Source: Candidatus Thorarchaeota archaeon (GTDB lineage Archaea > Asgardarchaeota > Thorarchaeia > Thorarchaeales > Thorarchaeaceae). From it: a DNA stretch of 64,000 nucleotides. The stretch is taken from positions 32,001 through 96,000 of the forward strand of contig JBHLQH010000006.1 in the NCBI GenBank assembly GCA_048884965.1, given 5' to 3'. The first letter of the stretch is position 1, and each line of letters begins with the position of its first letter. The notes below the pieces were generated by a model. That model saw nothing but the letters and a program-made list of their open reading frames with translations. It ran no database searches and was not told the origin of the DNA. Shown piece by piece: positions 49,339 through 64,000 of the stretch. Position numbers and translations under genes: made by a program.

Positions 49339-50532
49339 GTGCAAGCGAAATATGATGTAGTAGTTGTCGGTGCAGGTCCAGCAGGCAGTGTTGCCGCTCA
49401 GAAGGTGGCATCAAGTGGATACAAGACCCTGCTTCTTGATCGCCGCCGAGAAATTGGTGTACCTGTCCAATGTGGAGAATATCTACCTTCGATTCGAGAG
49501 ATGCATGAGATGTTCCCAAAATGCGAGCGGCTACAGAAGTTAGGAAGGATTCCTCGGAGCGTTGTAACAAACAAGACAACTGAGATGCGCCTTTATTCTC
49601 CAAGACTCCATGAGTACGTTTTTCCTCTCGAATCTCGTGTCATTGACCGTGCTCTATTTGACAAGCATCTCGCTACCAAGGCACAAGATGCAGGAGCATA
49701 TCTGAGCACAAACTCGAGGGTGTTAGAGAAGTTCCGTAAAAATAGACTCAAGGTTCGAACCTCAAAAGGAATCGAAGAGGTATCGGGGAAGGTAATCATC
49801 GGTGCCGATGGTCCTCGTTCTACCATCGCACAGTATCTTGGATTTTCCTACAGAAATACGATGAAGGATATCAGTCAATCACTACAATATGTGATTGGAG
49901 ATATTCCTATTGCAATGAAGGAGCCTATGATGTTCTTTGGACATAAGGTAGCGCCTGGTGGTTATGCATGGATCATTCCAAAGACTGATCGTGTTGTCAA
50001 TGTTGGCTTTGGCCTTCGAAACTCCTTCATGCGCCCAGGTACTACTCTGGTGTCATACCTTGACAATCTCATCAGCAATAAGGGGATATTTGGAGGAGCA
50101 TTGAAAGAAGGAAGGATTTTGTCTAGAGTCGGAGCAAGTATCCCAGTAGGTGGTCCTTTGAAACGGACCTACAATGAGAATACCATTTTGATTGGCGATG
50201 CAGCAGGGCATGTCATGGCGTCTAATGGTGGCGGTATCCCTACAGCTCTTGCAGGCGGCTCAATTGCAGGAGAAATAGTGGCTCAACATCTCGAGAATGG
50301 CCTAAGTCTTTCAGCATACGAAACACTCTGGAAACGCGAGTTTGGCACTCAACTATACTCAGCGCTTGCAACTCTGCGGATAGCAGATGTGATGATGAGG
50401 GATGACACTCTGACAGAGATTGCCATGCGTATTTCTGGAGCAAGATTTCTTGAGGATGTCATAAAATGCAGGGTTCCATCGCCGCTATCTTTTGGAACTC
50501 CTTTGTTAGCGTCACTGATGCAGCTGCTTTGA
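49339..50532 (+). CDS. Geranylgeranyl reductase family FAD oxidoreductase
   Basis: VVGAGPAG, PVQCGE, IDRALFD, GADG, GYAWIIP and GDAAG..GGGI motifs. Confidence 0.9.
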   Translation: MQAKYDVVVVGAGPAGSVAAQKVASSGYKTLLLDRRREIGVPVQCGEYLPSIREMHEMFPKCERLQKLGRIPRSVVTNKTTEMRLYSPRLHEYVFPLESRVIDRALFDKHLATKAQDAGAYLSTNSRVLEKFRKNRLKVRTSKGIEEVSGKVIIGADGPRSTIAQYLGFSYRNTMKDISQSLQYVIGDIPIAMKEPMMFFGHKVAPGGYAWIIPKTDRVVNVGFGLRNSFMRPGTTLVSYLDNLISNKGIFGGALKEGRILSRVGASIPVGGPLKRTYNENTILIGDAAGHVMASNGGGIPTALAGGSIAGEIVAQHLENGLSLSAYETLWKREFGTQLYSALATLRIADVMMRDDTLTEIAMRISGARFLEDVIKCRVPSPLSFGTPLLASLMQLL

Positions 50533-50608
50533 ATTCATGCAAGTTAGTCCTATATAGGGATAGGCGGCATAGTACAACTGGACCGATGCAGAAGACTTTG
50601 AATGCGAG

Positions 50609-51730
50609 ATGCCAGAAATGAGCTATTCCTCCAAATTCCTAGAAAGCGGCGATGCAGCCCGTGATTTATTGCTTGAAGCAGGATATGCAAGTGCTGCAGC
50701 CATTGAAGCTGTAACAAAACTAAGTGAGCTATGTATCTATGTTAGTTTGGTGGCAACGGTTGCCGCTGAACATGAAAAAGGTACTCCCTTGCCTGCACAC
50801 TTTGAGTCAGAGGTACATGTCAACCCAATCAAGTTGCGAGGGTCATCAACCATTAATCTAGTTGAAGAACTTGAGAATAGAAATGTACTCGTTCCCCGAG
50901 GGAACAAATATCGGGTGATGCTTAGCAACATGATGAATCGTGTATTCTCTCTAACAGCTAATAATGGACCTGATTCTATAAGAGTCGTTATTTCCAACCT
51001 TCATGATGTTGCAAAGTTTTCCAATGCTTTGGAAACCATCGAGTGGGAGCTTGTCACAGCTATCCATGAAAATGTGGATGTTAAGTATCTAGACATCCCT
51101 TCACTTGAGGCGAACAAGGTCCCAAAGGATCTTCTTGACAATGTGCAATCCATAAATGAGCTTGCTAGGCTGATGAGCGAAAATGAGATTGACTTGAATG
51201 AGTCTTCTGATTACCTCATCAAACATATGACGAAGGGACCTCAGGGATCAACAAATATGGAGATTCTTGAAAGATATCTCACCTCTATTCATACCCTCTC
51301 AAATCAGATCGAGATAGAAGGAAAGGAGAGATGGAAGATTATCCAAGGGGCGACCAAGTATCCAGTGTCGATTCTCAATAGAAGCGGGCCGCCTCTAATT
51401 AAGAGCTCTTGGCATCTAAAACCCGATTTCAGAAATCATCCTCTCATTGAGAAATTTAAGAATCTAATGAATACCAACCTTGAATTCATTATTGGAATCA
51501 TCACTATGTATGATGGATTCATTTCGGATGTGACAGAAAATGTATCTAGACTTCCTCGTGGTACAAGCTTAGTCGATGCCCTGAGAGAAAAGAATCCTGC
51601 ACTTCCCACATCTGGTGATATGGATGAGTGGTGGACTTGCATAGGTAAGCAATCGCTTGGATTGAAAGCTCAGCTAAAGCTACTGAGCAACTTGATTACA
51701 AATGTGGATTCACTTTTCCAGAATGCGTGA
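50609..51730 (+). CDS. Hypothetical soluble protein
   Basis: 373-aa ORF. No motif recognised. Confidence 0.7.
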   Translation: MPEMSYSSKFLESGDAARDLLLEAGYASAAAIEAVTKLSELCIYVSLVATVAAEHEKGTPLPAHFESEVHVNPIKLRGSSTINLVEELENRNVLVPRGNKYRVMLSNMMNRVFSLTANNGPDSIRVVISNLHDVAKFSNALETIEWELVTAIHENVDVKYLDIPSLEANKVPKDLLDNVQSINELARLMSENEIDLNESSDYLIKHMTKGPQGSTNMEILERYLTSIHTLSNQIEIEGKERWKIIQGATKYPVSILNRSGPPLIKSSWHLKPDFRNHPLIEKFKNLMNTNLEFIIGIITMYDGFISDVTENVSRLPRGTSLVDALREKNPALPTSGDMDEWWTCIGKQSLGLKAQLKLLSNLITNVDSLFQNA

Positions 51731-52798
51731 TCAATGAAGTCGCTGAAGCACGAAGTCCGCGATTCTTTCAAGCAATGTTGCAGTTACAAAGTATTGACCT
51801 ACCAACGCGCTCTTTGCCTTGGTCACATACTCCTTTGTTAATTCAATTGCCGTTGATATCGCGTCTGTCTGCTTGATGAGGATAAGCGCTTCAGAAACAT
51901 CTCCTTCAGACAGTGCCTGCAAGCAACTCTCTCTTTCTTTCATTGAAGAGGCTTCAAGAGCATGTACCAGAGGATATGTACACCTCTTCGACAACAGATC
52001 ACTATGGACTGCTTTGCCTGCAATCTCAGTCGAGGAAATGATATTCAAGATATCATCTCGGATCTGAAAGGCAAAGCCCAAGTTCTCGCCAAATATCCCT
52101 AACAGCTTAATTTGATCGTCAGTCCCTTCGCCTATTGTAGCTCCCATAGTTGCAGCAGCTTTGATGAAAGACACAGTCTTTTTGTTTACCATATCGAGAT
52201 AGTTATCCTTGGTCATCACTTCTGGATTGTCTGCTTGCATGAGCATGTCAGCAGCTTCGCCCTCACACATGCGAATACCTCCTTCTGCTATCTGTACCAT
52301 AAGGTCCGCAGTCGCATATTTTCCAATCATCTTCACCGCTTGTGCGACAAGTAGGTCTCCAGCTAGTATTGCCATTTTGTGACCGAACTTCTCATGAGCG
52401 GATTCCACACCTCGTCTTAACGCATCTTCATCTATCACATCATCATGAATTAGGCTTGCAGTCTGTGCGAATTCTGTCGCAACTGCGTATGGAAGGGCTT
52501 TTTCAATATCTCCTCCAACGGCCTCGCAACAAAGGACTACTAAGAGTGATCGTAGTCTCTTACCTCCTGCCTTCAGAAGATGCTTTGCAGTATCATAAAG
52601 AATCTTTGGCTCTCCATCAGTTCCAAGGTATGATTCAATTTCTTGATTGATTCTCTCAAGTCTTCTTTTCACTTTCTCATCCTGAAGTAGGTCGTTAAGA
52701 AAAGTCACTTCCCCATTCTGAATTGTGCTTTCTGGGAATAGACCATATGTATCTGCATCAGCGATAGCGTCTTTCTCGTTCAACACTTCATCCTTCAA
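51731..52798 (-). CDS. trans-polyprenyl diphosphate synthase (probably long-chain)
   Basis: GGKRLR, FARM ASLIHDDVIDED..RRG, GD, KT, SARM FQIRDD. Ala at position -5 of FARM. Confidence 0.92.
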   Translation of the reverse strand: MKDEVLNEKDAIADADTYGLFPESTIQNGEVTFLNDLLQDEKVKRRLERINQEIESYLGTDGEPKILYDTAKHLLKAGGKRLRSLLVVLCCEAVGGDIEKALPYAVATEFAQTASLIHDDVIDEDALRRGVESAHEKFGHKMAILAGDLLVAQAVKMIGKYATADLMVQIAEGGIRMCEGEAADMLMQADNPEVMTKDNYLDMVNKKTVSFIKAAATMGATIGEGTDDQIKLLGIFGENLGFAFQIRDDILNIISSTEIAGKAVHSDLLSKRCTYPLVHALEASSMKERESCLQALSEGDVSEALILIKQTDAISTAIELTKEYVTKAKSALVGQYFVTATLLERIADFVLQRLH

Positions 52799-52929
52799 GA
52801 TGTTTGGTAATTCGGGAGATAGAGTATCCCCTATTAAGGAATTCTGAAACCAGAAATATTAGTTTTAGTTTCAGGAAGAGTTTTCTGTGAAACTGACTTT
52901 CGATTCCTATCGAAACAGGAGTCACGACG

Positions 52930-53964
52930 ATGAATAGTGAAGAGAGAGAAGTTAGCAAGCTCAAAGCGTATTTCTTGGAACTACGTGCACCTTTTCTTAC
53001 GGCATCAATTTCACCTGTGTTACTTGGGACGGCAATAGCTTGGGCATTGACAGGTATCTTTCTAATTGATGTGTTTCTCCTGACATTGATCGCAGGCGTA
53101 TGCCTTCACATTGGTGCAAATGTATCAAATGACTACTTCGATCACACCACAGATAATACGGGCTCAGACGACATTAACACGGAGTTCGTTCGGCCCTTTA
53201 CAGGTGGAAGCAGGATGATACAGTTGGGGTATCTCTCACCTAGGGAGGTCTTGATTGAAGCATTCGTTTTCTTCGGTATTGCAGGAGCTATTGGTGTCTA
53301 CCTTGCGTTTACACGAGGATTCCTGATTTTGGTTCTTGGAATCATAGGTGCTGGCTCCGGATTCTTCTATACCGCCCCACCTTTCAGATTTGTAAAGAGG
53401 GGTATTGGAGAAGTCTTCATAGGTCTGAATTTTGGAGTTCTCATGACTTTTGGTTCATACTATGTTCAGGCATTGGATATTGCTTTGGAACCCATTCTTG
53501 CATCGGTGCCCACTGCACTTCTTATTGCAGCTGTCCTGTATATCAATGAGTTTCCTGATTTTATTGCAGATCGGGACTCTGGCAAAAGAACCATTGTTGT
53601 AAGACTTGGACGGGCTAGGGCCGCTAAAGGATATGCATTGATCATCGCCATTACTTTTTCATGGATAGTTATTTGTGTGCTTATGCAACTTATTTCATAT
53701 GAGTCCCTTCTTGCTCTTACACTTCTACCCATTGGATATGTTGGGGTGCGTACTGCCCTAAAAGAATATGAAACGCCTAATCGGATGGTCCCAGCAAATG
53801 CTGCGACCGTGTTACTACACCTCTTGATAACGTTGTATCTCACGTCTGCATACATCTTGAAGGGATTCATGGTGGATTTTCTCATACTCATTGTTGCTGG
53901 AGTCATCATGCTACTAATCTGCTTCACCCAATACAGGACACTTATTCGCCCGCCTCCAGCTTAG
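52930..53964 (+). CDS. menA: MenA-like 1,4-dihydroxy-2-naphthoate polyprenyltransferase (UbiA superfamily)
   Basis: LRAPFL, NDYFD....GSD, GGSR, YTAPPF..K.RG.GE and INEFPD..AD..SGKRT motifs. Confidence 0.85.
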   Translation: MNSEEREVSKLKAYFLELRAPFLTASISPVLLGTAIAWALTGIFLIDVFLLTLIAGVCLHIGANVSNDYFDHTTDNTGSDDINTEFVRPFTGGSRMIQLGYLSPREVLIEAFVFFGIAGAIGVYLAFTRGFLILVLGIIGAGSGFFYTAPPFRFVKRGIGEVFIGLNFGVLMTFGSYYVQALDIALEPILASVPTALLIAAVLYINEFPDFIADRDSGKRTIVVRLGRARAAKGYALIIAITFSWIVICVLMQLISYESLLALTLLPIGYVGVRTALKEYETPNRMVPANAATVLLHLLITLYLTSAYILKGFMVDFLILIVAGVIMLLICFTQYRTLIRPPPA

Positions 53965-57194: not shown

Positions 57195-59135
57195 ATGGGA
57201 CTTAAGAAACGACAAATCGAGAAGCTTGCGGAACTCTTCGGAGATCGGCTCATTACTGAGAAGCACGAGTTAGTCATATTCAACACTGATGTTGGCGCCT
57301 TGCCAAAGCAAGTAGGATATATGATGAACAACAAACCTGATGCGGCAGTACAACCATTGACTCCGGAGGAGATTCAAGCTCTCTACGAAATTGCCAATAA
57401 AGAGAAGATACCTCTCGTTCCACGAGGAGCTGGGACAAGTGGGTATGGTGGTGCCATTCCACGAAAAGGTGGAATCATTGTAGACATTCGCAGGATGAAC
57501 AACATCATCGAGGTGGACAAGGAGAACCTGTCTGTTCTGGTAGAACCTGGACTCTCGTGGTCCAACCTACAGTTCGAGTTGAACCGTCAAGACTTGGATC
57601 TGCGATGCTATCCCTCATCAGGATTGGCTGCAACGATTGGAGGTTGGGTCGCTCAGGGTGGCGATGGTATTGGGTCTCTAAAGTATGGCAACATCAATGA
57701 GAATGTCCTTGAGTTTGAGGTCGTCCTACCAGATGGCAAGATAATCAAGAGTCGCGATACAGATCTCTTCTGTGACACTGAGGGAATACTGGGAATTATC
57801 ACCAAGGTCCGTTTGAAGATCAAGCCCCTTATGCCGCTAAAGGTCATCGTAGCAAGCTTCCCTGAGAACTACCAGATGGTTCTCGCAATGGAGAAGATGC
57901 TTGAGGATGGCCCATTACCTTATACTATCAAGTTTGAAGAATCAAAGTACACAGATCTCAAGAAGAAGGTCTGGGATGCTGATGAGCCCTTCCCGTTCCC
58001 CGTGCACCATGGAACAGTCATGGTCGCATACGAGGGAACAGATGAGGAGATTGAGGAAGGATTCGAGGTAGTTCGACATGTGACTGCAGAGTACAATGGT
58101 GTCGTCTACGATGAGCACGTAGCAGCGCACGAATGGCATGATCGATTCTATCCTATGCGTGTAAAGAAGGCTGGTCCTACCCTAGTTGTCGGACAGGCAT
58201 TCGCACCCCTTGAGAACCTTGAGGCTATTCTCTCTGATTTCCAGTTCGAGCAAGCCTCTGCCCAAGCGGGTATCGATGGATATGTGACCTCAAGATCAGG
58301 GGTAACTATCATGGGCTACTTCCTTGAAGACGAACGCAGAATGTTCTTCATGCTCTCCTGGTCACAAAGCTTTGTCATATTCAAGATCGCTCAACGACAT
58401 GGCGGACATCCCCACGGAATAGGGATCTGGTTCGCCAACTATGCGCCACAATACTTTGGCACACGACGACTGGCAAAGATTAGGGCTGCCAAGCTTCAGT
58501 ATGATAAGAATGAGATCTCGAATCCTGGGAAGATATTCGCATACTGGCTTCCCTTCATTCTTCGTATTGGCAAGTATTTCATGTGGATCGGTTATGACCT
58601 CTTCCGGAATGGATGGGGACGAATCGCTCCAGTGCTTTTGAAATGGCTACAGAATGTACCTCCTCTGAAGTGGATGCTCCGCTGGGGTCGTGGCCATAGT
58701 CCATGGCCTGTACAGTTCGGTCTTGGATGTTGTATGATGGACGGTGCGGCAGCTGTTGCCTCACGTTGGGACATTGAACGATTTGGAATGCTTCCACTCT
58801 TCGGTCCACGTCAGGCTGATGTGCTGTGGGTATCAGGGTCTCTGACCAAGAAGATGGCTCCACGACTTCGCAGAATCTATGAGCAGATGCCTGAGCCCAA
58901 GTATGTCATTAGCTTCGGTCAATGCGCCGCAAGTGGTGGCATGTTCTGGGATGGCTATTCTCTGATGACCCCGCCAGACAAGGTAGTGCCCGTTGATGTG
59001 TATCTGCCCGGTTGCCCACCAAAACCTGTAGATTTCGTACGAGCGCATTTGATATTACAAAACAAGATTCGCGCCGGTACAACGCACTGGCAGAGGAAGT
59101 ACGAGAATCAAGATGCAATGGGGATGATGCAATGA
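57195..59135 (+). CDS. Fusion of GlcD/D-lactate-dehydrogenase-like FAD oxidoreductase and NuoB (complex I N2 subunit)
   Basis: N-terminal PRGAGTS..GG, VEPG, ATIGG, LKYG, TEGILGIITK, HGIG, NPGK. C-terminal GLGCC, PRQADVL, GSLTKKMAP, QMPEPKYVI, GQCAASGG, PVDVYLPGCPP. Single uninterrupted ORF. Confidence 0.93.
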   Translation: MGLKKRQIEKLAELFGDRLITEKHELVIFNTDVGALPKQVGYMMNNKPDAAVQPLTPEEIQALYEIANKEKIPLVPRGAGTSGYGGAIPRKGGIIVDIRRMNNIIEVDKENLSVLVEPGLSWSNLQFELNRQDLDLRCYPSSGLAATIGGWVAQGGDGIGSLKYGNINENVLEFEVVLPDGKIIKSRDTDLFCDTEGILGIITKVRLKIKPLMPLKVIVASFPENYQMVLAMEKMLEDGPLPYTIKFEESKYTDLKKKVWDADEPFPFPVHHGTVMVAYEGTDEEIEEGFEVVRHVTAEYNGVVYDEHVAAHEWHDRFYPMRVKKAGPTLVVGQAFAPLENLEAILSDFQFEQASAQAGIDGYVTSRSGVTIMGYFLEDERRMFFMLSWSQSFVIFKIAQRHGGHPHGIGIWFANYAPQYFGTRRLAKIRAAKLQYDKNEISNPGKIFAYWLPFILRIGKYFMWIGYDLFRNGWGRIAPVLLKWLQNVPPLKWMLRWGRGHSPWPVQFGLGCCMMDGAAAVASRWDIERFGMLPLFGPRQADVLWVSGSLTKKMAPRLRRIYEQMPEPKYVISFGQCAASGGMFWDGYSLMTPPDKVVPVDVYLPGCPPKPVDFVRAHLILQNKIRAGTTHWQRKYENQDAMGMMQ

Positions 59136-59692
59136 GTCGACGGTTGAACGAGGACGCAGACAGGTACTGCATGTTCTGGCTTGGTATCATGATGATGACT
59201 GCCTACTATGCAGAGTTCATCATCAAGCCCACAGTTGGGTTGATTACCTTGGGATTTGGCAACCTCGTACCTCTCCTTGGTGGTCCACTAATCATTGTTG
59301 CCGCATTCTTTGGGTATTTCGCCCCTGAGGCAAGGAGTAGGAGAGAAAAAATGCGAAAGAATACATCTTTGGCTGTAGCGATTTTCGTTGCTCTCATGTA
59401 CATGATTTTCTCATTTGTTGTATATCCTTGGGAGATGGCTGATGTTGTGTGGTATTCATTTTGGGGTATTGGCTCTGCTATCGTAACCGCAGGTGGAGCC
59501 GCGATGATCCGAATAACCACCGCTGATGAAGCATACACACCTGGTATCATGGATGTCAGTAAGCTGCATTACGGACCTCCACCCGCAGAACCTGAGGTCG
59601 AGATCGAAGCTATAACTGCAGAATCTTCTGACGAATCCAAAGAAAAATCTGAAGAGGAAATATCAGTAGCTCCAACTGAAGCTACTGAGTGA
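59132..59692 (+). CDS. Hypothetical 4-TM membrane protein with acidic tail, translationally coupled to the fusion gene
   Basis: ATGA overlap at 59132-59135. Hydrophobic segments and E/S-rich C-terminus. Confidence 0.7.
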   Translation: MSRRLNEDADRYCMFWLGIMMMTAYYAEFIIKPTVGLITLGFGNLVPLLGGPLIIVAAFFGYFAPEARSRREKMRKNTSLAVAIFVALMYMIFSFVVYPWEMADVVWYSFWGIGSAIVTAGGAAMIRITTADEAYTPGIMDVSKLHYGPPPAEPEVEIEAITAESSDESKEKSEEEISVAPTEATE

Positions 59693-59699
59693 TTCCCTC

Positions 59700-60065
59700 T
59701 CACTCTAGCAGCCAATTGAATGCTGCGAATGCCAACAACAGTCCAAATGCTATCCATGCGAACAAGATTATTCCTGGAAAGACATCATACATGGAAATAT
59801 CCAAGAAGAAATGAACACCGCCAGTGACGCCACAGATGGCAGTCATAGCAACTCTCGATGTGCGCGTCTTAGTATAGACAAAGAGAAATGCCGATATCAG
59901 TAAAACGATACCACTCATGAATAGGATGAATTGGTAGTATGTACTGAAATGGAATGCCTCAATTGTTGCAGGTGTGGTAAGTATATACCACAAATAGGCT
60001 CCGACAAGACTCATACCTATCAGGAGCGCAAGATAATAGAAGAATCCTCCTTCTTCTCGACTCAA
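59700..60065 (-). CDS. Hypothetical 4-TM membrane protein
   Basis: Four hydrophobic segments. AGGAG upstream. Confidence 0.65.
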   Translation of the reverse strand: MSREEGGFFYYLALLIGMSLVGAYLWYILTTPATIEAFHFSTYYQFILFMSGIVLLISAFLFVYTKTRTSRVAMTAICGVTGGVHFFLDISMYDVFPGIILFAWIAFGLLLAFAAFNWLLE

Positions 60066-60186
60066 TGTTATCGGTTCTCCTTTAGTTGTACAACCGACTT
60101 TCTAGGTAGCAACTACAATATTTAACTTCTCCGAGATTCTTGCGAAGCGTTTTTAATACGGCTGTACATTCCGCCCTTCTCAAGTT

Positions 60187-60391
60187 ACAGGTTTACGATA
60201 CACGAAGAATCCAGAGTGTCACTACGTAAACAAGCGTGATGTTTATCACTTGGTTGTATCGTCCTGTTGCTAAGCATTGATGTCAAATGAACACCACGAG
60301 AATGATTGAAGATGGTTCAGGAACAACACTTTTACCTTACCATTTGTCAGGATTGCGTCAGTCTTGTCGAAGCTGACAGACTTCTCGGGTG
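60187..60391 (+). promoter_or_regulatory. Structured 5' leader candidate upstream of nuoA
   Basis: TATA-like TTTTAATA near 60151 and several complementary blocks (see findings). Confidence 0.35.
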
Positions 60392-60418
60392 TCGTGAAAC
60401 AGAGGACGGTATCAGAGC

Positions 60419-60853
60419 ATGAGGTTATTCGTGGACTTCGTACCGGTATTAGTATGGGCACTACTTGCCATTGTGCTTGTAGTTGTGATGCTTTTGGCTT
60501 CATGGGTCTTGCGACCGCATGTTCTCCAGAATTCGGAGAAGCTATCATCATATGAGTGTGGTGAGGATCCAATTGGAGTAGCAAGGATATCTTACCCGTA
60601 CAACTACCTGGTATACACCATTCTATTTGTTGTGATTGATGTGATGGGTGCATTCCTATGGTTGCTGGCGGCATCTACACTAAGACTGGAAGCGATGATA
60701 GTTTGGCAGACTCTGATATTTGTCTTGATCATCATGGGCGGAATAGGTTTCGCGATGAAGCTGTTGCCACAAGCATCTCTCGATGGCAAAGAGACACTCG
60801 AGTTGTATCGTGAAACCAAGAAAGCTCGGGAGGCGACTCAATCCCATCATTAA
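60419..60853 (+). CDS. nuoA: Complex I-like subunit A
   Basis: EKLSSYECGEDP loop, 3 TMs. Confidence 0.92.
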   Translation: MRLFVDFVPVLVWALLAIVLVVVMLLASWVLRPHVLQNSEKLSSYECGEDPIGVARISYPYNYLVYTILFVVIDVMGAFLWLLAASTLRLEAMIVWQTLIFVLIIMGGIGFAMKLLPQASLDGKETLELYRETKKAREATQSHH

Positions 60854-60860
60854 GAGGTGA

Positions 60861-61502
60861 ATGATCATGCAAGAATTAGATCCATTCCTCCAACTCTTTG
60901 AGCAAGTAGAATTCTTACTCATTGCAGGCATAGTAATTGTTCTTGGCTACCTTGCACTAGAACACAAGGACATAGTCTACGCTGCTTTCTTCTTTGGTTT
61001 CATGGCAAGTATTGTTGCGGGTTTCTTCTTACTACTTGACGCACCTTACATTGCCGGTATGCAGATTGCTGTTTATACAGGTGGCATCAGTGCATTGATT
61101 ATCTTTGGCGTTCTGCTACTTCCTCGTGCGCAAGACACAAGCCTAGAGATTTTCGCATCTCCCAGTAAACGACGAATCGGTATGCTTGCAGCTGCATTCG
61201 TGATGGCATTCTCTGGTGGCCTTGCGCTTGCATTCCCATGGCCTTCTGTGATACCTGAAGGTATACCGGAGTTCTCTCAGAGCCTACAAGGTCTAGCAGA
61301 ATGGCTTTGGCAAGAACATGGTCTCTATGTGCAGATTATTGCATTGATTATCCTTACTACCCTCGTTGGTTCACTTGCCCTCCTTCAGATGGATAAGGGA
61401 GAGGCATTGAAGGGAGTCACCGCTGAATTCGGGATTGAAGCAGAGCCGGAGCCTGAGACCGATGAATACTCTGATGAAGAAATAAAGGAGGCTTCGAACT
61501 AA
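60861..61502 (+). CDS. nuoJ: Complex I-like subunit J
   Basis: LLDAPYIAGMQIAVYTGGI motif, 5 TMs. Confidence 0.9.
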   Translation: MIMQELDPFLQLFEQVEFLLIAGIVIVLGYLALEHKDIVYAAFFFGFMASIVAGFFLLLDAPYIAGMQIAVYTGGISALIIFGVLLLPRAQDTSLEIFASPSKRRIGMLAAAFVMAFSGGLALAFPWPSVIPEGIPEFSQSLQGLAEWLWQEHGLYVQIIALIILTTLVGSLALLQMDKGEALKGVTAEFGIEAEPEPETDEYSDEEIKEASN

Positions 61503-61813
61503 TGGTCCCGCTAACATGGTATCTTGTCGTCGCCTTCATCCTGATTGGTCTTGGAGCGTATGGGATGATGGTCAAGCGGAACCTCATCCGAATTCTGATA
61601 GCTGCTGAGATTATGGGCAATGGCGTTAATGTTGCGCTCGTTTCGTTGGCTGTCTATGGCGGGTACTTCTCATACACCCCACAGGGTCTCATTATGTTGA
61701 TTATCTCGGTAGCGGCTGCTCATACCGCTTTAGCCCTTGTTCTAATGCTAATGTACAACCGTCGCTATGGTACGGTTGACTTAGGAACACCACTACAACA
61801 GGAGGTGTCCTAG
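61502..61813 (+). CDS. nuoK: Complex I-like subunit K
   Basis: LGAYG..KRNLIRILIAAEIM, VAAA motifs. Confidence 0.9.
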   Translation: MVPLTWYLVVAFILIGLGAYGMMVKRNLIRILIAAEIMGNGVNVALVSLAVYGGYFSYTPQGLIMLIISVAAAHTALALVLMLMYNRRYGTVDLGTPLQQEVS

Positions 61814-61814
61814 A

Positions 61815-62324
61815 ATGGGTCCGGAAGATCTAGTTCGGAAGTTCAATTCGAAGTTTCCTGAGATAGAAGCCAATGTCCAGGACAGTACTCATGTCGAGTT
61901 CACTGTGCCAAAAGGTAAGATACGTGATCTAGTAAATCTTGTAGATGAGACGTTTCCTATGGTTCTTCCTGAAACAGTCTTTGGTGTTGATCTTGGTGAT
62001 GATAAATATCAGATCAACTATATGTTCTGGTCTAGAGATAGTCGTTTGATAACTCAACTAAGAGTCAATCTGGATGGTCCAACACCATCTGTTGATTCTG
62101 TAAGCGATATCTTCCCAGCATTCGAATGGCATGAGCGTGAAACACATGAGATGTTTGGGATTATGTTCAATGGTCATCCTGACCTTCGACCACTTCTTTT
62201 ACCTGATGAGTTGGTTGGTCAGTACCCACTCCGTAAAAGTTTCCAAACAGATCGAAGTCGAGAAGACGAATCAGGTCTCGTGGTCAAAAAGCCACGCCCT
62301 GATGCTGGAGGTGGCAGTGAATGA
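61815..62324 (+). CDS. nuoC: Complex I-like subunit C
   Basis: WHERETHEMFGIMFNGHPDLRPLLLP..YPLRK motif. Confidence 0.93.
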   Translation: MGPEDLVRKFNSKFPEIEANVQDSTHVEFTVPKGKIRDLVNLVDETFPMVLPETVFGVDLGDDKYQINYMFWSRDSRLITQLRVNLDGPTPSVDSVSDIFPAFEWHERETHEMFGIMFNGHPDLRPLLLPDELVGQYPLRKSFQTDRSREDESGLVVKKPRPDAGGGSE

Positions 62325-63457
62325 GCCCTGACATTGTTGATGAATCAGTAGATATCTGGTTTGGGCCACAGCATGTATCCGCACATGGATGGGCTGCAAA
62401 ACTCAAGCTAGTTGGCGACTTTATCGTAGAATGCGATCCACATGCAGGATATTTCCACAGGTCTGCAGAGAAGTGTTTGGAGTATCGAAACTTCCGCCAA
62501 GGCTCACTGATCCTTGAGCGACTGTGTATGCTTGAAGCATTCCTTTCCGAATATCCCTACCTTAGTGCAGTCGAGCAAATTGCTGGTCTTGAAGTCCCTG
62601 AACGTGCTAAGGTCATCCGGACCATCATGATGGAGGCGAGCAGGATTCACTCCTTCCAGTTCTGGTGGGGTCAGTTCTCAGCTGAGATGGGATTCTTTGC
62701 TATGACCCTTTGGCCATGGGTGGACCGAGAATACTTCCTGGATGCCTTTGAGGAACTGACTGGTTCCCGTCACGCTCCAAGCTTTGGGACTCCTGGCGGC
62801 GTCAGATTTGACTTTACTGAGAAATCTGTGAAGAAATTGGAGAAAGCAATTGATGTGTTGGAGAGCAATCTGCCAAAGTTCGAGGACATGCTTCTGGGAA
62901 GTCCAATCTTTAGGATGCGAACAGAAGGAGTCGCCCGTTATAGTGGCAAACAGGCGCTTCGATGGGGATTCTCAGGGCCAAACATTAAGGCTTGCGGAAT
63001 ACCCATGGATTTGAGGAAGGATTTCCCTGATCCAAATCTCGCTTACAATATGGCTGATTGGGAAGTTCCTATTGTGGAGAATCCTGAGTATCCCGGTGAA
63101 AGCGATGCATTCGACAGGATGCTCCAGAGATTCAAAGAGGTCAAGACCTCTGTCAGCATCATTAAGCAGCTGTTGCCCCAGGTACCTGAGGGCGAGATCG
63201 TAGATCCAAAGGCTAGAGCAAAAGCCAATCGCCTCCCTGAAGGAGAAGCCTATGGCCGAGTTGAGGGAACTCGTGGAATCATTTCTCTCTGGTTGAAGAC
63301 ACTGGATAAAGCACAGACCCCCTATCGGGCGAAGATACGCGGACCGTGCCTACAATCATACTATTCACTCAAGCATCTGGTACCTAGTGCCAGATTCGCT
63401 GATTTCATTGTAATATTTGGAAGCCTTGATCCATATCCAGGATGGTGGGATAGATGA
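62321..63457 (+). CDS. nuoD: Complex I/MBS-like subunit D (no NiFe CxxC pairs)
   Basis: GPQHVSAHG, GYFHRSAEK, VPERA, PGGV, GEAYGRVE..RG, PYRAKIRGP and SLDPYPGWWDR motifs. Confidence 0.9.
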   Translation: MSPDIVDESVDIWFGPQHVSAHGWAAKLKLVGDFIVECDPHAGYFHRSAEKCLEYRNFRQGSLILERLCMLEAFLSEYPYLSAVEQIAGLEVPERAKVIRTIMMEASRIHSFQFWWGQFSAEMGFFAMTLWPWVDREYFLDAFEELTGSRHAPSFGTPGGVRFDFTEKSVKKLEKAIDVLESNLPKFEDMLLGSPIFRMRTEGVARYSGKQALRWGFSGPNIKACGIPMDLRKDFPDPNLAYNMADWEVPIVENPEYPGESDAFDRMLQRFKEVKTSVSIIKQLLPQVPEGEIVDPKARAKANRLPEGEAYGRVEGTRGIISLWLKTLDKAQTPYRAKIRGPCLQSYYSLKHLVPSARFADFIVIFGSLDPYPGWWDR

Positions 63458-64000
63458 TAGGAGGTGCAGTGACATTGCAATTCGAATGGTTCTTTGACTG
63501 GCTTGCTGGAATTCCTACGTGGCTTTTCGATGTTATATATTGGATAATTGACATCATAATGGGAATCATCTTTTGGATAGAGGATCTAGTCAGATTTCTC
63601 TGGATTCTCATTGTCGACAACTTCTTCTTCCTACTCAAGGCAGTCCTATTCCCAGGATTGATTTTCGTTGTAATGGGACTCATCTATTTCGTTTGGTTTA
63701 CACGAAAACTCTGGGGTCGCATTCAGATGCGAAGAGGTCCAATGCACTTGGGTAAGTATGGTGGCGTGCAACTCTTTGCTGATGCTATCAAGCTCATCTC
63801 AAAGGAAACCATTATCCCCACCAACGCTCGAAGATGGATGTACCGCTTCCTTCCTTCGCTACTACTCATAGTCGTACTCATTCCATTTGCATTCATTCCA
63901 TGGGATACGACATGGTTCATCGCTGACCTTTCAGTAAGCCTTGTACTGGTGTTCGCATTCCTTGCTGCAGTGCCTGTCATTGCTCTTCTAGCGGGTTGGA
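63454..64000 (+). CDS. nuoH: Complex I-like subunit H, runs off window
   Basis: Not in ORF track. Manual translation gives ...WFTRKLWGRIQMRRGPMHLGKYGGVQLFADAIKLISKETIIP... ATG overlaps the nuoD stop (GTG 63469 is an alternative start). Confidence 0.9.
   Translation, partial: MIGGAVTLQFEWFFDWLAGIPTWLFDVIYWIIDIIMGIIFWIEDLVRFLWILIVDNFFFLLKAVLFPGLIFVVMGLIYFVWFTRKLWGRIQMRRGPMHLGKYGGVQLFADAIKLISKETIIPTNARRWMYRFLPSLLLIVVLIPFAFIPWDTTWFIADLSVSLVLVFAFLAAVPVIALLAGW

Follow-up and report, generated by a model that had tools for sequence, protein, structure and literature searches.

A complex I-like NuoD of Thorarchaeia with a mosaic active-site pocket and a tyrosine at a former metal-ligand position

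The window analysed here is a stretch of 64,000 nucleotides from a Candidatus Thorarchaeota archaeon. Near its end lies a nuo operon whose nuoD-like gene encodes the NuoD, or 49-kDa, subunit of an ion pump of Thorarchaeia that resembles complex I. Judged by its sequence, the pocket of this subunit is unlike that of every characterised relative: it keeps the His/acid pair, Arg67 and the adjoining N2 cluster of complex I, has a Met at the position of the quinone-binding Tyr87 of Thermus thermophilus Nqo4, and carries Cys69 and, near the C-terminus, Tyr372. An earlier note on the same DNA had called this pocket a hybrid, and the mosaic of complex I characters with relics of membrane-bound sulfane reductase (MBS) and hydrogenase proved to be genuine, strongly conserved and clade-defining. 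The features of the locus are listed in Table 1.

Table 1. Features of the nuo locus, the pocket motifs of NuoD and a linked gene, in window positions
Feature	Position	Strand	Basis or remark
nuoD-like gene (378 aa, P0001), 49-kDa/NuoD-family subunit	62321..63457	+	PF00346, AlphaFold2 (AF2) model, fold search
Beta1-beta2 loop GPQHVSAHG (residues 15-23); His22 = Nqo4 His38	62363..62389	+	PDB-chain alignment, conservation
RLCMLE (residues 67-72), with Arg67, Cys69, Met70, Glu72	62519..62536	+	PDB-chain alignments, conservation
Glu122 = Nqo4 Asp139, partner of His38	62684..62686	+	Alignment, register counted by hand
C-terminal SLDPYPGWWDR (residues 368-378), with Tyr372, Trp375	63422..63454	+	Alignment, conservation, PMC7567858
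nuoA	60419-60853	+	Same operon, upstream of nuoD
nuoJ	60861-61502	+	Same operon, upstream of nuoD
nuoK	61502-61813	+	Same operon, upstream of nuoD
nuoC	61815-62324	+	Same operon, directly upstream of nuoD
nuoH, cut by the window end	63454..64000	+	Full gene, nuoI and four antiporter-like genes continue in L003
C-terminal NuoB domain of the FAD-oxidase::NuoB fusion (57195-59135, 646 aa)	58665..59135	+	
MenA-like aromatic prenyltransferase, possible maker of a membrane carrier	52930..53964	+	TIGR00751

The nuoD-like gene and its product

The gene is a single open frame. Its ATG overlaps the stop codon of nuoC and its own stop codon overlaps the start of nuoH, and it is translationally coupled to both neighbours. 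The product matches the Pfam model PF00346 (Complex1_49kDa) at 198.3 bits against a cut-off of 24, over profile positions 2-271 of 271, and it is encoded by the sole PF00346 gene of a 4.09-Mb genome that is 95.7% complete. The AF2 model has a predicted local distance difference test score (pLDDT) of 94.7, and a Foldseek search with this model returns the 49-kDa fold at a template-modelling (TM) score of about 0.9. The best NCBIfam match is NuoD, yet the protein stays under every NuoD, FpoD and NdhH equivalog cut-off. It scores 313 vs 360, 261 vs 459 and 260 vs 522 with the NuoD models NF004739, TIGR01962 and NF008974, respectively, and 238 bits vs a cut-off of 600 with the FpoD model NF040602.

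A NiFe-type enzyme of group 4 retains next to no probability as an identity for this protein. There is a weak PF00374 match (residues 47-119, 26.7 bits), and true group 4 enzymes occur in other genera of the same family, but the five Cys residues of the protein (positions 38, 52, 69, 225 and 343) form no CxxC, of the four Ni-Fe Cys ligands (RxCGxC ... DPCxxC) Cys69 alone is present, and the loop Glu that is conserved in 96% of NiFe forms is Gly23 here. The single ligand and the lack of CxxC refute the NiFe identity at the level of sequence, in agreement with the earlier note, which had excluded a NiFe hydrogenase because no CxxC pair was seen.

Pocket residues relative to solved structures

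Residue equivalences were taken from HMMER alignments to PDB chains. The best sequence match is MbsL of Pyrococcus furiosus (6u8y_L; E 5e-61, 35% identity, root-mean-square deviation 2.0 A), and the second is T. thermophilus Nqo4 (E 2e-54). The RLCMLE motif aligns with RMDYLH of Nqo4 and RICVPE of MbsL, while SLDPYPGWWDR at the C-terminus aligns with SLDPVMGDVDR and SLDNCPPD, respectively. These alignments confirm the register in which the earlier note had read the two motifs, the first in place of the canonical R-x-D-Y, and the two His residues of GPQHxxxHG are kept as it had stated.

Arg67 corresponds to Nqo4 Arg84, Cys69 to Nqo4 Asp86 and MbsL Cys85, which is the first NiFe-ligand position, and Met70 to Nqo4 Tyr87, the residue that hydrogen-bonds the quinone carbonyl. 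Glu72 occupies the second NiFe Cys position. Tyr372 is found at the third NiFe-ligand position, which is Cys385 in MbsL, Val403 in Nqo4, Val407 in Rhodobacter capsulatus and Val424 in mouse NDUFS2; the last equivalence comes from the aligned ranges, in which query residue 375 is residue 427 of the 430-residue mammalian chains. The C-terminal segment that holds this position lines the site of the quinone head group. Trp375 occupies the fourth NiFe-ligand position and Trp376 adjoins it, so that Asp406/Val407 of Nqo4 are replaced by Trp-Trp. His22 has no equivalent in MbsL, which has a Lys at the position of Glu122 in the hand-counted alignment.

NDUFS2 Val424 (R. capsulatus Val407) lies near the 3' methoxy group of the piericidin head group (PMC7567858, Bridges et al.) and adds to piericidin binding energy, beside Tyr108 and His59 (PMC7567858). 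In NiFe enzymes the same position is a Cys, C531 of HycE, which exchanges protons with a residue of the beta1-beta2 loop (PMC9474812). Because of these two equivalences, Tyr372 should by homology belong to the active-site shell and adjoin the His22-bearing loop. The earlier note had named a Tyr outside the active site as an outcome fatal to its reading; instead, the residue aligns with a contact of the piericidin head group.

Conservation and occurrence

About 60 homologues from Thorarchaeia, 68-93% identical and mostly labelled, where named, as metagenome-assembled genomes of Thorarchaeota, have the same residues and are called the Thor clade below. Across the 56 full-length homologues used as the conservation set (minimum pairwise identity 68.5%), 144 of the 378 positions are invariant. 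His18, His22, Arg67, Cys69, Glu72 and Tyr372 are invariant in all Thor-clade sequences that cover them (59 of 59 for Tyr372), Met70 is conserved in 97%, Glu122 in 98%, and Trp375 and Trp376 in 97-98%. Cys225 (62993-62995) and Cys343 (63347-63349) are also invariant in this clade; the Nqo4 alignment has Ser at these positions and the sister clade has Ala and Ser.

Identity falls sharply to 49% at a sister Asgard clade, whose named members are labelled Heimdallarchaeota and whose motifs read ER[LI]S[ML]xEA ... S.D.Y.AE.DR. This clade keeps His22, Met70, Glu72, Glu122 and Tyr372 (the latter in five of five sequences), and it has Ser for Cys69, Glu for Trp375 and neither Trp. Because the sister clade has Ser69, the shared element of the two clades is the His/Glu pair with the relocated Tyr and not the Cys. 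Among related forms, His22 is present in 100% of the Thor and sister clades and 97% of canonical NuoD and is mostly absent from Mbs-like and NiFe forms. At position 122, the Thor, sister and Asgard two-Cys forms have Glu, 90% of canonical NuoD have Asp, and Mbs-like forms have Lys or Ser. Position 70 is Tyr in 100% of the 123 canonical NuoD sequences sampled, and position 372 is Tyr in none of them. By these alignments the set of pocket motifs exceeds chance.

Positions 69 and 372 are those of the two terminal Ni ligands in NiFe enzymes, and the side chains would by homology be a few angstroms apart. Together with the invariance of Cys69 and Tyr372 and the near-invariance of both Trp residues in the Thor clade, this could speak for a redox cofactor formed from side chains of the protein, for example a Cys-Tyr thioether, possibly including Trp375, which would stand in for a diffusible quinone as an internal acceptor or relay. 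Such a cofactor is most unlikely: the sister clade combines Ser69 and Glu375 with a retained Tyr372, so a Cys-dependent cofactor cannot be the shared function, and no maturation gene or metal site points to cross-linking.

The Thor-type NuoD is found in 40 or so of the 59 genomes sampled from the window's own family. Four genera are without it, and the four genomes checked from these all have a group 4 NiFe hydrogenase (ERICGICS or [AS]RICGICS).

Operon and partner subunits

The operon has the gene order nuoA-J-K-C-D-H-I-M'-L-M-N, with nuoB displaced upstream and fused to an FAD oxidase; nuoE, nuoF and nuoG were not found in the nuo cluster. The NuoB domain has a tandem Cys in FGLGCC (58728-58733), followed by GQC and GCPP, which make up the N2 ligand set of complex I type. 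FGLGCC aligns with FGLACC (C45/C46) of Nqo6, and Nqo6 is the best PDB match of the domain (1e-43 vs 3.5e-31 for MbsJ). NuoH is closest to Escherichia coli NuoH (1.4e-48 vs 1.7e-12 for MbsM) and keeps most of the acidic residues of the loop between transmembrane helices 5 and 6. NuoA, NuoJ and NuoK are Nuo-type, nuoI and four NuoL/M/N-like antiporter-like genes follow downstream, and a Mrp-type module is absent. NuoK matches complex I/NDH-1 chains far better than chains of MBS and membrane-bound hydrogenase (MBH), and its first membrane Glu (E. coli E36) is kept in AAEIM. By these matches, the enzyme is otherwise complex I-type.

A sulfane-sulfur (polysulfide) reductase subunit of the MBS/Mbx type, with Cys69 acting on sulfur, would agree with the best PDB match to MbsL, with the R-x-C-x-x-E motif common to both proteins, and with trees that group the protein among two-Cys non-hydrogenase forms. 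This function is nevertheless very unlikely. The earlier note had described the first Cys of the sulfane reductase as kept and the second as replaced by Tyr, which the register bears out, but it had given both as catalytic, and published work contradicts this: MbsL C85A/C385A has wild-type activity (Yu 2020, PMC7684303). Yu et al. ascribe polysulfide reduction by MBS to the proximal cluster of MbsJ, in which a shortened motif leaves three Cys ligands and one non-Cys iron (PMC7684303). The NuoB domain here has all four ligands, the tandem Cys among them, and its match to Nqo6 is far better than that to MbsJ; by its motifs, the feature that defines MBS chemistry is absent. Moreover, the equivalents of His38 and Asp139 are present here and not in MbsL, the membrane arm is made of NuoA/J/K/H/L/M/N and is not Mrp-type, and the sister clade has Ser at the position of Cys69.

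The fusion gene and nuoA are separated by a 1.3-kb stretch (59136-60418), and the two open reading frames scanned between these genes, 59012-59692 (+) and 59700-60065 (-), gave no Pfam match. In the sister clade, the operons (L004, L009) have the order nuoA / J-K-C-D-H-(I)-M'-L-M-N and, like that of the Thor clade, lack a nuoB between K and C; a DUF2284 gene lies upstream in both loci. The NuoB of this clade must be encoded away from the nuo operon; in one genome of the sister type (G025), NuoB-like frames of at most 347 aa are found on other contigs.

Phylogeny and origin of the pocket

Two quick maximum-likelihood trees were built with Shimodaira-Hasegawa-like approximate likelihood ratio test (SH-aLRT) supports, one of 157 rows under LG+G4 and one of 68 rows under LG+C20 with posterior mean site frequencies (PMSF). 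In both trees the Thor and sister sequences form one clade (SH-aLRT 100) on a long stem of 0.55-0.6, the nearest neighbours of this clade are the Asgard two-Cys forms P0123 and P0067 (support 89-90), and the NiFe group 4 enzymes are separate (support 99). The Thor, sister and P0123/P0067 sequences stand outside a clade (support 89) that joins canonical NuoD, with its Asp-Tyr...Val pattern, to forms with a Cys-Tyr...Cys pattern, as described for Fpo (PMC4758237). Nesting within ordinary NuoD clades that share the substitutions, the other outcome that would have spoken against the earlier note, is not seen in the two trees. However, an approximately unbiased (AU) test does not reject a tree in which the Thor and sister sequences are forced onto canonical NuoD (delta lnL 9.5, p 0.33), so the placement outside the Fpo-type and Nuo clade is favoured but not proven.

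This test result would also suit an ordinary menaquinone-reducing NuoD in which Tyr372 plays no particular part and the substitutions reflect neutral drift, as would the Pfam class, the best NCBIfam match and the report that Tyr144 variants of Yarrowia lipolytica still reduce short-chain quinones (cited in PMC7567858). Such drift is distinctly unlikely. The protein scores under all NuoD and FpoD equivalog cut-offs, not one of the 123 canonical sequences has lost Tyr87 in this way or gained a Tyr at position 372, the long stem sets the clade apart, and the substituted residues are among the most conserved of the clade, which is unlike drift.

Because the nearest relatives are the Asgard two-Cys NuoD proteins, the change from Cys to Tyr at position 372 and that from Phe to Met at position 70 would, by parsimony, be derived changes on an Asgard side branch. 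The earlier note had proposed an evolutionary intermediate between MBS and complex I. This description suits the character states only; it fails for the lineage, in which NuoB, NuoH, NuoK and the membrane arm are already complex I-type and the nearest relatives are Asgard two-Cys NuoD.

The Cys-to-Tyr change at position 372 has arisen more than once, because one protein (P0159) is a lone Tyr372 variant inside a two-Cys Mbx-like family (DR[ILV]C[VI]xE ... SLN[IV]CPAD[ML]DR). P0159 reads DRICMYEA / SLDIYPGAIDR and has no GPQH loop. It was considered as an independent 'Cys-Met-x-Glu / Tyr' lineage and rejected, the rest of its family being ordinary two-Cys Mbx-like. Its locus (L007:3-10290) is a Mrp/Mbh-type cluster in which NuoC is fused to a GltD/SudA-like flavoprotein with Fer4_20 and Pyr_redox_2 domains, and a second NuoB-C-D set lies after it.

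Candidate acceptors and genome context

The tandem-Cys N2 motif and the His/acid pair are signatures tied to quinone or phenazine reduction (PMC8165549; PMC4758237). A candidate source of a lipophilic acceptor is the MenA-like aromatic prenyltransferase of the window, which scores 108.8 bits with TIGR00751 against a cut-off of 102.15 and whose gene shares a contig with nuoD, at a distance of 7-34 kb, in at least 19 of the family's genomes. It is clustered with genes of a GGR-family reductase and a polyprenyl synthase (49339-53964). In a phylogenetic profile, however, the gene and the Thor-type NuoD are not exclusive to each other, since NiFe-only genera mostly carry a MenA-like gene as well.

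Beyond the window end, the nuo operon is directly followed by a multihaem cytochrome c of 463 aa with c554/c552/NrfB-like Pfam matches (L003:8876-10267) and by a cytochrome c assembly protein, PF01578 (L003:12637-14601). Because the two genes directly follow the operon, their presence implies a membrane electron-transport chain, as far as gene content can tell. Thorarchaeia are a widespread Asgard lineage that is usually described as fermentative, and the two proteins are unexpected there. A literature search on Thorarchaeota, menaquinone and cytochromes yielded nothing relevant.

Proposed mechanism

The reading preferred here, with a probability of roughly 0.4, is that the Thor-type NuoD belongs to a derived side branch within the Asgard archaea and uses the His22/Glu122 pair and the relocated Tyr372 to reduce a lipophilic carrier. 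Electrons would reach N2 through the Fe-S clusters of NuoI and NuoB, and N2 would reduce a lipophilic two-electron carrier bound in the cavity between NuoD, NuoB and NuoH. The His22/Glu122 pair would give one proton, as in complex I, while Tyr372, from the opposite wall, would give the hydrogen bond and the proton that Tyr87 gives canonically. Turnover would power ion translocation through the NuoH/A/J/K channel and the four antiporter-like subunits. The carrier may be a prenylated aromatic compound built with the linked MenA-like prenyltransferase, and it need not be menaquinone. In evolutionary terms, the enzyme would be a side branch derived from Asgard two-Cys NuoD rather than a transitional form between MBS and complex I.

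Several observations, besides the AU test, weigh against this proposal. MqnA/MqnD, MqnC and MenB were not found in the 95.7%-complete genome, so no known naphthoquinone head-group pathway is evident, and the NrfD and NapC/NirT quinol dehydrogenase families were not found in the genome either. The MenA-like gene is also present in most of the sister genera that have only the NiFe group 4 enzyme. In NuoK, the second conserved Glu (E. coli E72, in AAAEA) is replaced by His in AAAHTA, which changes the E-channel. The NuoB-fused flavoenzyme and a neighbouring HdrD/GlcF-like CCG protein offer a possible quinone-free route for electrons, and Tyr372, Trp375, Trp376 and Met70 could fill the deep pocket instead of serving a substrate.

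The main rival is a tentative possibility. The pocket would no longer be a substrate site; it would be a relic or an aromatic plug made of Met70, Tyr372, Trp375 and Trp376, in an enzyme that keeps the fold and the N2-linked conformational coupling and passes electrons between ferredoxin (via NuoI) and the fused flavoenzyme and/or the CCG protein. The FAD oxidase::NuoB fusion and a divergent CCG/2x[4Fe-4S] gene adjoin the operon, and the bulky Trp375 and Trp376, at and beside the fourth NiFe-ligand position, are specific to the Thor clade. The lack of a known quinone head-group pathway and of the NrfD and NapC families favours this arrangement, the relic Cys residues of MBS are dispensable (PMC7684303), and direct reduction of a disulfide reductase was postulated for the Fpo-like complex of Methanoplasma, which has a tandem-Cys NuoB, His38 and Asp139 (PMC4758237). 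However, His22, Glu122 and Tyr372 are strictly kept across two clades that are 49% identical and would have no obvious role in a plugged pocket, the sister clade has neither Trp and no nuoB within its nuo operon, and the MenA-like gene remains linked to the operon.

It is unlikely, though worth stating, that the pocket is a new kind of acceptor site: either a recruited Tyr and the His/Glu pair serve an Asgard carrier, or a fixed Cys/Tyr/Trp element works without a diffusible substrate. In the substrate-free version, the fixed Cys, Tyr and Trp residues might form a redox or proton relay, and transfer from ferredoxin to the flavoenzyme (or to the CCG protein) might drive pumping.

The central question of complex I is how ion pumping is driven by the quinone chemistry at the NuoD/NuoB/NuoH junction, and the central question of its evolution is how the quinone site arose from a NiFe centre. 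The Thor clade is a natural experiment, in which N2, the His/acid pair and the membrane arm are kept, the canonical Tyr is replaced and a new Tyr stands at a former metal-ligand position. If Tyr372 acts as proposed, the proton-donor geometry would have two evolutionary origins, each from a different wall of the pocket. If the pocket serves no substrate, coupling would proceed without quinone, and complex I-type coupling would be separated from quinone chemistry. Either outcome bears on the energy metabolism of Thorarchaeia. In the family sampled this complex is the main membrane redox pump.

Comparison with known systems

The 49-kDa subunits of complex I (NuoD, Nqo4 and NDUFS2; T. thermophilus 4HEA, E. 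coli 7P7J and mouse) share the fold of the Thor-type protein, as given by the TM score above, and their His34, His38 and Arg84 are kept here, with Asp139 present as Glu. Its partners are also like those of complex I, with the tandem-Cys N2 motif of NuoB and NuoH/A/J/K/L/M/N of complex I type. In contrast, Tyr87 is changed to Met, Asp86 to Cys, Val403 to Tyr and Asp406/Val407 to Trp-Trp, and the cluster lacks nuoEFG genes, has the order A-J-K-C-D-H and has its nuoB displaced and fused to a flavoenzyme.

MbsL of P. furiosus (PDB 6U8Y) has the same R-x-C-x-x-E motif with the first NiFe Cys kept, and Tyr87 is absent in both proteins. It differs in its second Cys, C385, where Tyr372 is found here, in the lack of His38 and in the Lys at the Asp139 position. 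The MBS complex has a three-Cys catalytic proximal cluster and a Mrp-type arm (MbsA-E, G, H, H'), whereas both are complex I-type in the present enzyme.

Fpo (the F420H2:phenazine oxidoreductase of methanogens) and the Fpo-like complexes of Methanomassiliicoccales are archaeal, work without NuoEFG and have a tandem-Cys NuoB and a Cys86 relic (PMC4758237), like the enzyme described here. The Fpo-like NuoD of Methanoplasma has His38 and Asp139 (PMC4758237). FpoD keeps Tyr87 and the third Cys and lacks His38 and Asp139 (PMC4758237), which is the reverse of the pattern seen here.

Published Asgard complex I-like enzymes are NiFe types, and no paper was found that describes the pocket of the Thor-type NuoD or the Asgard two-Cys NuoD forms. 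The NiFe hydrogenases of group 4 from Heimdallarchaeia, Freyarchaeia and Atabeyarchaeia are Asgard enzymes of complex I-like architecture without NuoEFG (bioRxiv 10.1101/2024.07.04.601786; PMC11291895), like the present one, but their NuoD homologues are described as proton-reducing NiFe hydrogenases, and NiFe binding is impossible here.

Outside the Thor and sister clades, the closest relatives are the Asgard two-Cys NuoD proteins (P0123, P0067), at 38-39% identity. This type occurs in genome G112, from the same order, and in genome G026, from another family. These proteins keep His22 and Glu122, and their operons (L005:5514-16824, L011 and L013 among them) have the order nuoA / J-K-(B)-C-D-H-I-M'-L-M-N. 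They differ in reading E-R-x-C-F-x-[ED] / L-D-V-C-P-A-D-L-D-R, where Phe stands in place of Tyr87 and position 372 is Cys, and in a free-standing NuoB whose C-x-x-C-C motif combines the CxxC spacing of hydrogenases with the tandem Cys of complex I.

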